Shown: positions 61,084-61,623 of the stretch, one piece after another
How the letters are laid out: each line of letters begins with the position of its first letter
Numbering within the stretch: position 1 is the stretch's first letter
Sequence record: PP925831.1
Origin: Escherichia phage Pinarejo
Direction: 5' to 3' (one strand)
DNA length: 64,000 nucleotides
Notes under the pieces: generated by a model
Told to the model about the DNA's origin: nothing
Seen by the model: the letters and a program-made list of their open reading frames with translations, nothing else
Databases searched by the model: none
Position numbers and translations under genes: made by a program

Positions 61084-61261
61084 CTAAACGAATAGGTTCA
61101 TGAATGCCATATCCTTGAACAGAAATTTCTGTCGTAGGATAAATTCCATTAATATCACCCATGTTCCATGCTTCGTTAAATTGCTGTTCGCCTGAATTAC
61201 TAAACCACTCGGCGAAAGCATTTAGCACATCTTCAGAACCTTCAATAATTATCTTTGCCAT
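61040..61261 (-). CDS. hypothetical small protein
   Basis: 73 aa ORF. Confidence 0.4.
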   Translation of the reverse strand: MAKIIIEGSEDVLNAFAEWFSNSGEQQFNEAWNMGDINGIYPTTEISVQGYGIHEPIRLVEYDLCTCEEVKYD

Positions 61262-61623
61262 TACAAACTCTCGGTGAAGGTACGAGCGATAACGTCGCGC
61301 TGCTGTTCCGGAGTCAGAGAGTTAAAGCGAACTGCATAACCGGATACACGGATGGTCAGCTGCGGATATTTTTCCGGATGCTTAACTGCATCTTCCAGAG
61401 TTTCACGACGCAGAACGTTAACGTTCAGGTGTTGACCACCTTCAATTTTAACTGTAGGCTGTTGCTCAATTTCAATTTCACGGGCATGCAAACCATAGAA
61501 AATTTCTGGGTCTACAAAAGAGTCCTCTTTAAAGGTTTTAGAGACAATAATTCGTGCTTGAATACCATCTTCAAAATAAATAGTACCTTTATGTGTGCCT
61601 TCAAGAATTTGATATGCTTTCAT
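61261..61623 (-). CDS. autonomous glycyl-radical cofactor (GrcA/YfiD-like)
   Basis: 120 aa; C-terminal RVSGYAV glycyl-radical signature; 3' half is GC-rich relative to flanks. Confidence 0.75.

Follow-up and report, generated by a model that had tools for sequence, protein, structure and literature searches.

Gene identity and genomic context

The window analysed here, that is the whole stretch of 64,000 nt, is a segment of a Tequatrovirus (T4-like) genome. An ORF of 120 amino acids with its own Shine-Dalgarno sequence and stop codon was found on the minus strand at 61261..61623 and was annotated as a vs.6/Y06I-type gene, a homologue of GrcA/YfiD. The Shine-Dalgarno sequence is a GAGG (61628..61631, minus strand) located 4 nt upstream of the vs.6 ATG, and the stop codon overlaps, as TAATG, the ATG of a vs.5-like ORF of 73 amino acids (61040..61261, minus strand; phrog_1986, function unknown). 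The neighbours of the gene are vs.7 and vs.5, in the same order as in T4. At the nucleotide level the ORF is 98.3% identical to T4 ORF 63.1 (X04567) and 99-100% identical to many Tequatrovirus genes annotated as 'autonomous glycyl radical cofactor', with several Escherichia phages at 100%. From its sequence, the ORF is T4 vs.6/Y06I, already described as a phage 'spare part' of the GrcA/YfiD type for pyruvate formate-lyase damaged by oxygen. The original prediction had stated that a T4 homologue was already known, and this homologue is vs.6 (Y06I), ORF 63.1 of X04567.

The Pfam Gly_radical domain (PF01228) matches residues 60-101 of the vs.6 protein with 67 bits (cut-off 22.2), and the RVSGYAV glycyl-radical motif occupies residues 92-98 (61330..61350, minus strand), the radical glycine being G95 (61339..61341). 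Both the motif and the domain that define GrcA/YfiD are present, and the protein has the stand-alone form of this family (TIGR04365, IPR011140), with a length of about 120-130 amino acids that is essentially made up of the glycyl-radical domain. The NCBIfam model TIGR04365 (GrcA) scores 154.9 bits on residues 20-120, below its 170-bit equivalog cut-off, because the N-terminal half of the vs.6 protein is divergent; E. coli GrcA scores 233.9 bits with the same model. Among known structures, YfiD (PDB 6owr) matches the protein at E=9e-42, while the PflB chains 1h16 and 1cm5, whose C-terminal domain shares the fold and the motif with the window protein, match at E=5e-26 over chain residues 697-759. 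The phage-type 5' half taken alone (ORF nt 1-178, residues 1-59; 61446..61623, minus strand) has no Pfam match. It is 60-100% conserved in nucleotide sequence across T4-like genera and matches only T4-like phages.

GrcA (YfiD) is a 14-kDa stand-alone glycyl-radical domain, and the corresponding C-terminal fragment of PflB is lost when oxygen cuts the enzyme at Gly734. For T4 Y06I, it is described that PflA installs the radical and that the small protein complexes with O2-cleaved PflB, the activity being restored; in the same account, biochemical validation is reported for two spare-part proteins, Y06I and YfiD (Wagner et al. 2001 via PMC8683613). The window protein, which is 98% identical to Y06I, is predicted to be a PflA-loaded replacement for the O2-cleaved PflB fragment. 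A spare part made from the phage's own transcripts would presumably sustain anaerobic or microaerobic pyruvate metabolism once host expression has been shut off.

Two further observations concern the surroundings of the gene. In the window, just 59 nt separate denV (62641..63057, minus strand) from e, the lysozyme gene (63117..63611, minus strand), whereas in T4 (X04567) ipIII and ipII are placed between e and denV; the window phage has neither of them at this position. An Rfam scan of 58-64 kb found no family, and promoter and terminator scans gave scores that were not above those of shuffles.

The host-identical tract in the 3' half

Alignment of the vs.6 protein with E. coli GrcA by BLASTP gave 74 identities in 100 positions. 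The C-terminal 60 residues correspond to GrcA residues 68-127 and are 100% identical, so that the original prediction of a C-terminus with RVSGYAV matching GrcA almost residue for residue was, if anything, understated, and the C-terminus that it quoted is exact. The N-terminal half, which it had described as divergent, has 19 of 59 residues identical to E. coli GrcA (about 32%). The window protein shares with E. coli GrcA (PDB 6OWR) its stand-alone architecture, homology from about residue 20 onwards and these C-terminal 60 residues, whereas it is 7 residues shorter, and its gene lies in a phage early-gene cluster and does not adjoin ung.

In nucleotide sequence, the identity to grcA is 97.3% over ORF nt 179-363, and each of the 5,426 complete E. 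coli genomes matches this segment in the 95-99% band. Within it, an uninterrupted exact run of 169/169 nt was found (ORF nt 179-347; 61277..61445, minus strand), while the adjoining 178 nt on the 5' side are only 49% identical to grcA. A run of this length greatly exceeds what chance or constraint on the protein would produce. The gene hence contains a segment whose identity to the host is far above that of the rest and which has sharp boundaries, as expected of a host-phage mosaic (gene-converted) auxiliary metabolic gene. In a megablast search with all 64 kb against the 5,426 E. coli genomes, only this tract was recovered, together with a weaker match to pflB at this position. E. coli pflB was rejected as the donor, as its identity to the tract is 80.6% compared with 100% for grcA.

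The base composition changes together with the identity. The GC content is 0.497 in the 169-nt tract and 0.337 in the phage-type 5' half (61446..61623), and the value of 0.50 at 61261..61440 against 0.344 for the whole window agrees with the contrast of roughly 50% GC and an AT-rich phage background that the original prediction had described. Nowhere in the 64 kb is the GC content higher than in the tract, and its value is reached by just 0.036% of all 169-nt windows. Composition is also not uniform over the phage homologues: the 3' halves have a GC of 0.46-0.57 where they are converted or host-like and of 0.38-0.41 where they are unconverted, and the 5' halves of the T4-like homologues tabulated have a GC of 0.34-0.42. 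A second GC-rich island of the window (20023..20209; GC 0.48 or more) sits within a gene 41-type helicase ORF of 475 amino acids (19787..21214, minus strand); it has no E. coli megablast match and was discarded as a second host patch.

A total of 80 bacterial grcA loci were compared as possible donors. Over the same 169 nt, the identity to the phage is 100% for E. coli, 98.8% for another Escherichia sp., 91.7% for Citrobacter amalonaticus and Trabulsiella, and 90% or less for the remaining genera sampled. The 60-residue tail is exact in several enterobacterial genera, and a few residues differ in others (two to four in Klebsiella and Salmonella). Since other enterobacteria with the same tail are only 83-92% identical in DNA, the donor is E. 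coli itself. From these sequence comparisons, we conclude that the tract was donated by the E. coli lineage and that the transfer is recent when set against the speciation of the enterobacteria.

The same comparison decides against the explanation that no transfer took place and that purifying selection, or convergence on optimal E. coli codons, produced the match in a constrained domain. The 60-residue domain is indeed highly conserved in the Enterobacteriaceae, and the tract uses host-preferred codons. However, bacteria with the same or nearly the same tail differ by 8-17% at these sites, with a dS of 0.42 between E. coli and Citrobacter over the tract segment, the boundary is abrupt, with 169 exact matches beside 49% identity, and unconverted phages function with cores that are 72-83% identical and have about 8 amino-acid changes. 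This explanation is effectively refuted because the bacterial orthologues diverge synonymously, and we assign it practically no chance. The identity to the host (100% over 169 nt) also stands well above that of the unconverted Karamvirus, CC31 and T5-like cores to bacteria, which is the comparison of host and phage homologues that the original prediction had proposed as a check.

Identity alone carries no direction and shared polymorphisms are symmetric, which leaves room for a transfer from the phage into the 3' half of E. coli grcA, or for host reads that were mis-assembled into phage genomes. The direction from host to phage is supported because the two halves of E. coli grcA have diverged in parallel from those of Escherichia sp., Citrobacter, Salmonella and Klebsiella, and because the GC content and codon usage of the tract are host-like and foreign to the phage. 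In addition, the sequence is carried by all 5,426 E. coli genomes, with an annotated grcA in every match listed. An assembly artefact is excluded, as the tract is found in frame both in X04567, a T4 record from the Sanger era, and in over 630 phage genomes that are independent of one another. We therefore consider the reversed direction and the artefact very unlikely.

The E. coli-type tail was found at 95% identity or more in 638 phage records, with only 8 records in the 90-95% band, so that the distribution is bimodal. In a neighbour-joining tree of the core (the core alignments use a motif-anchored 171-nt core), Tequatrovirus and Mosigvirus are nested among the E. coli alleles and Jiaodavirus falls in Klebsiella/Raoultella; the Haemophilus-associated and Klebsiella phage groups are likewise placed inside or beside their own host clade. 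The two halves of the gene are phylogenetically incongruent, the segment grouping with the host species and the rest with the phages. The suggestion of a 3' half derived from the host by recent recombination is thus supported by the 169/169 nt of E. coli grcA and their abrupt boundary. Its host origin stands, but the event was underestimated, as the identity is exact and the exchange appears to be recurrent.

Junctions of the tract

The left (5') junction was placed by a difference plot at 61445..61446 (minus strand), 2 nt upstream of the first codon of a 10-residue motif. It occurs at the same place in Tequatrovirus, Mosigvirus and Jiaodavirus. Whether other T-even genomes have the same boundary had been put forward as a further check, and the left boundary is indeed common to T4, the other Tequatroviruses and the Mosigviruses.

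The right (3') junction zone (61261..61276, minus strand) comprises the last 16 nt of the gene including the stop codon, and the tract is bounded on this side because host homology stops at the overlapping vs.5-like ORF. The ribosome-binding region of the gene that follows lies in this zone too; in the T4 annotation, the rRNA binding site of ORF 62.7 is placed here. Within the last 16 nt, five differences from E. coli were found in the window, two in T4 and one in phage OES_C-2. The coding sequence ends with TTC ACC GAG AGT TTG in the window and with TTT ACT GAA AGT TTG in T4. Hence T4 is phage-like in AGT TTG only, whereas the window is phage-like from TTC onward and its host tract is shorter at the 3' end; OES_C-2 follows E. 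coli as far as the stop codon apart from a GAA>GAG change. These three different right junctions occur in Tequatroviruses with 5' halves of 99% identity or more. In other respects the window gene resembles T4 vs.6 (Y06I_BPT4) closely, with the same length, neighbours and left junction and the same tract except for one codon, where the window allele has Arg and T4 has His (CGT/CAT).

Phage OES_C-2 (L265, 79-435) carries the longest E. coli tract seen. Its gene has also lost 6 nt in frame immediately upstream of the junction, which changes EIEIEQQP to EIETQP.

Probable recurrence among coliphages

A rival account is a single transfer from host to phage, in one ancestor or one phage, followed by spread of the patch among T4-like coliphages through recombination between co-infecting phages and without repeated exchange with the host. 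T-even phages recombine very frequently, and mosaicism between phages is seen in the flanks of the locus; moreover, the left junction is the same in all Tequatroviruses and Mosigviruses. The Mosigvirus patches, which have a dS of 0.10-0.155 from E. coli, share four changes that are all A/T-ward, as expected of one older inherited copy. This sequence pattern fits an older copy that would be drifting towards phage composition.

The comparison of the window with a divergent phiE142-like phage (L088) is against this account. Between these two, the dS is 0.43 in the 5' half and 0.024 in the patch, and both patches have a dS of 0-0.024 from E. coli. In terms of sites, 18/178 differ in the 5' half and 1/169 in the patch (Fisher p=6e-5). 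Over 3.3 kb the two phages are 70-91% identical, and a 99-100% island coincides with the host-homologous tract; this island ends exactly at the limits of host homology and does not extend into the phage flanks. The three right junctions on near-identical 5' halves described above likewise argue against one inherited patch.

A second island between the window and L088 (92-98%, about 62474..62623) lies near the vs.8 start, with flanks of 50-85%. This island looks like ordinary phage-phage mosaicism.

Patches of different phages were also found to equal different segregating E. coli alleles, which also speaks against a single transfer. The patch of Yersinia phage PST is identical at 165/165 nt to another segregating E. 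coli allele, with K-12 at 98.8%, and this PST-type allele occurs at 100% in 5 of 40 evenly spaced E. coli genomes. Of the eight polymorphisms in the E. coli sample, five were also found among the 21 synonymous variants of the phages (hypergeometric p=0.003), although the test is weak when restricted to transitions (p=0.09). The metagenomic alleles used have an identity to E. coli of 98.4-100% along the entire gene.

Parallel cases in Klebsiella and Haemophilus phages

Jiaodavirus genes have 5' halves that are 72-73% identical to the window, and their 3' halves have a GC of 0.53-0.57 and Klebsiella-specific codons, including those of the LLDAVEH residues. Among the Jiaodaviruses the 5' halves are 97-100% identical, whereas the cores are only 91-96% identical with an unchanged core protein. 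For KP179 and contig L175, 1/180 sites differ in the 5' half and 14/162 in the core (p=2e-4). The best donors are not the same for all members, being a Klebsiella-type allele for KEN37 (98.1%), another Klebsiella allele for KPV15 and L176 (97%) and Raoultella for L175 (95.1%). The donor alleles of Klebsiella, Raoultella and Haemophilus were sparsely sampled, and the identities of only 95-98% to Klebsiella/Raoultella donors may reflect this sparse sampling, or older events followed by drift. With the Klebsiella grcA tail as the query, 136 phage records were found at 90% or more, and the best 30 of these 136 are all Klebsiella or Raoultella phages.

The vs.6 homologue of KPV15 (L165/L108; CDS 1501-1862) has a 1-nt deletion in its 5' half and is annotated as two CDSs (50 aa and 51 aa 'GrcA'). 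The split gene is either a pseudogene or the result of a sequencing error.

A separate case was found in an unrelated group of phage contigs from metagenomes, which are about 90-150 kb long and encode a homologue of 130 aa. In L103 (IMG/VR contig 3300008607_000007, ~91 kb), a GrcA homologue of 130 aa (1501-1890) contains a tract of 56 nt identical to Haemophilus (para)influenzae grcA, or about 74 nt with one mismatch. The siblings L101, L102 and L104 are without the Haemophilus-identical tract and have 7-10 differing sites in that stretch.

The several Klebsiella- and Raoultella-like donors on an almost invariant Jiaodavirus 5' half and the separate Haemophilus case also count against a single transfer, which we regard as a rather improbable explanation, though one with more to commend it than the absence or reversal of transfer. 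More than one independent exchange event is strongly suggested by the sequences because of the dS contrast, the variable right junctions, the different E. coli alleles, the Klebsiella/Raoultella-like donors and the Haemophilus tract, with phage-phage spread apparently contributing among the coliphages.

Proposed mechanism of host-templated conversion

We consider it probable that vs.6 is an old, diverged phage copy of grcA whose 3' half has been overwritten, and recurrently so, by gene conversion from E. coli grcA. While the identity, the boundaries, the donor species, the incongruence between the halves and the parallels in Klebsiella and Haemophilus are read directly from the alignments, we infer the recombination mechanism, the frequency of the events and any selective benefit. 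The whole of vs.6 would be an ancient phage copy of grcA in which protein constraint keeps the glycyl-radical domain about 75-85% like the host gene, with exact runs of 20-35 nt. Such a similarity would let the recombination machinery of the phage initiate homologous invasion of fragments of host DNA, and join-copy recombination of the T4 UvsX type on these fragments could then overwrite the domain. The conversion would start at the onset of phage-host homology and would end within the last codons.

After a first conversion, about 170 nt of perfect homology would be available and later conversions should be much more frequent. This 'homology trap' would explain both the exact match and the presence of host polymorphisms in phages. 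If conversion is self-reinforcing in this manner, the 3' half would evolve in concert with the host gene while the 5' half follows the phage genealogy.

A more general reading is that the radical half of the phage gene is a standing hot spot of conversion from hosts to virulent phages, which tracks the grcA of the current host (E. coli, Klebsiella/Raoultella or Haemophilus) through the homology trap, possibly with selection for a domain matched to the PflA and PflB of the host. We would neither favour nor discount this extension of recurrent conversion. If it is true, the locus would provide a natural and datable marker of recombination between lytic phages with hydroxymethylcytosine-containing DNA and the chromosomes that they degrade, and also a sequence signature of the recent host genus.

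Comparison with known systems

The vs.6 gene and its biochemical role are already known, and so are, in kind, mosaic host-phage metabolic genes. We found no accessible paper on the exact E. coli tract in vs.6 or on its recurrence, and an earlier mention of the identity between T4 and E. coli is possible. The nearest parallel is in cyanophages, where psbA and psbD reportedly carry host-like segments that are indicative of repeated host-phage exchange. As in those mosaics, a metabolic gene of T4-like phages has host-like sequence and composition along with phylogenies that are incongruent along the gene. The present case differs in that it concerns an enterobacterial host and a phage that breaks down host DNA and whose own DNA contains hydroxymethylcytosine. 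Moreover, the exact copy of 169 nt is limited to one domain, and tracts that match the host are seen in the same gene for three genera of hosts.

T4-type phages break down the DNA of their host, and exchange with its chromosome is usually assumed to be very limited. An exact and repeatedly renewed host copy in several genera would represent natural host-templated conversion at a place where protein constraint preserves homology, and the vs.6/grcA pair could serve as a simple system for the rate of such conversion and for the recombination and nuclease genes of the phage that it requires. It also bears on the compatibility of auxiliary metabolic genes with their host partners. In practical terms, host-like DNA found in the genome of a lytic phage need not be contamination, and the recent host genus of a phage may be readable from its grcA patch.

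Lineages without host tracking

Not all phage lineages with a GrcA homologue have a host-matched core. The cores of Enterobacter Karamviruses, CC31, Cronobacter phage Pet-CM3-4, T5-like phages, Aeromonas phages and jumbo phages are the divergent ones, at 72-83% to any sampled bacterium; they look unconverted, and host tracking was rejected for these phages. In the core tree, the Karamvirus/CC31, Slopekvirus, Pseudotevenvirus, T5 and Aeromonas phages are located outside the host clades (72-86% to bacteria).

The Slopekvirus and Pseudotevenvirus genes have a host-type protein tail, although their DNA is only 83-86% identical to the sampled bacteria. The KP15-like, Slopekvirus-like phages (L099, L100, L172) have the Klebsiella-type LLDAVEH tail, and the Pseudotevenvirus tail is the E. 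coli-type LEDAVKH even on a Klebsiella host (L173, Klebsiella phage Kp_GWPR59, 260-622). These tails may be old conversions or the result of convergence at the protein level.

A full-length Salmonella-type tail was not found in the phage collection, the best match being just 84%, and Salmonella was rejected as a donor. The Salmonella grcA tail gave three partial-coverage phage matches at 90-95%, which could be short Salmonella-derived tracts. An apparent Yersinia-matched phage tail (L111) was also set aside as it is probably a genuine bacterial grcA within a prophage call.

A further variation was observed among the bacterial sequences themselves. In the two bacterial GrcA proteins P0057 and P0073, a PflB-type end (LTKEQQQDVITRTF) replaces the GrcA end, which suggests either that conversion between grcA and pflB occurs within host genomes or that these metagenome assemblies are chimeric.
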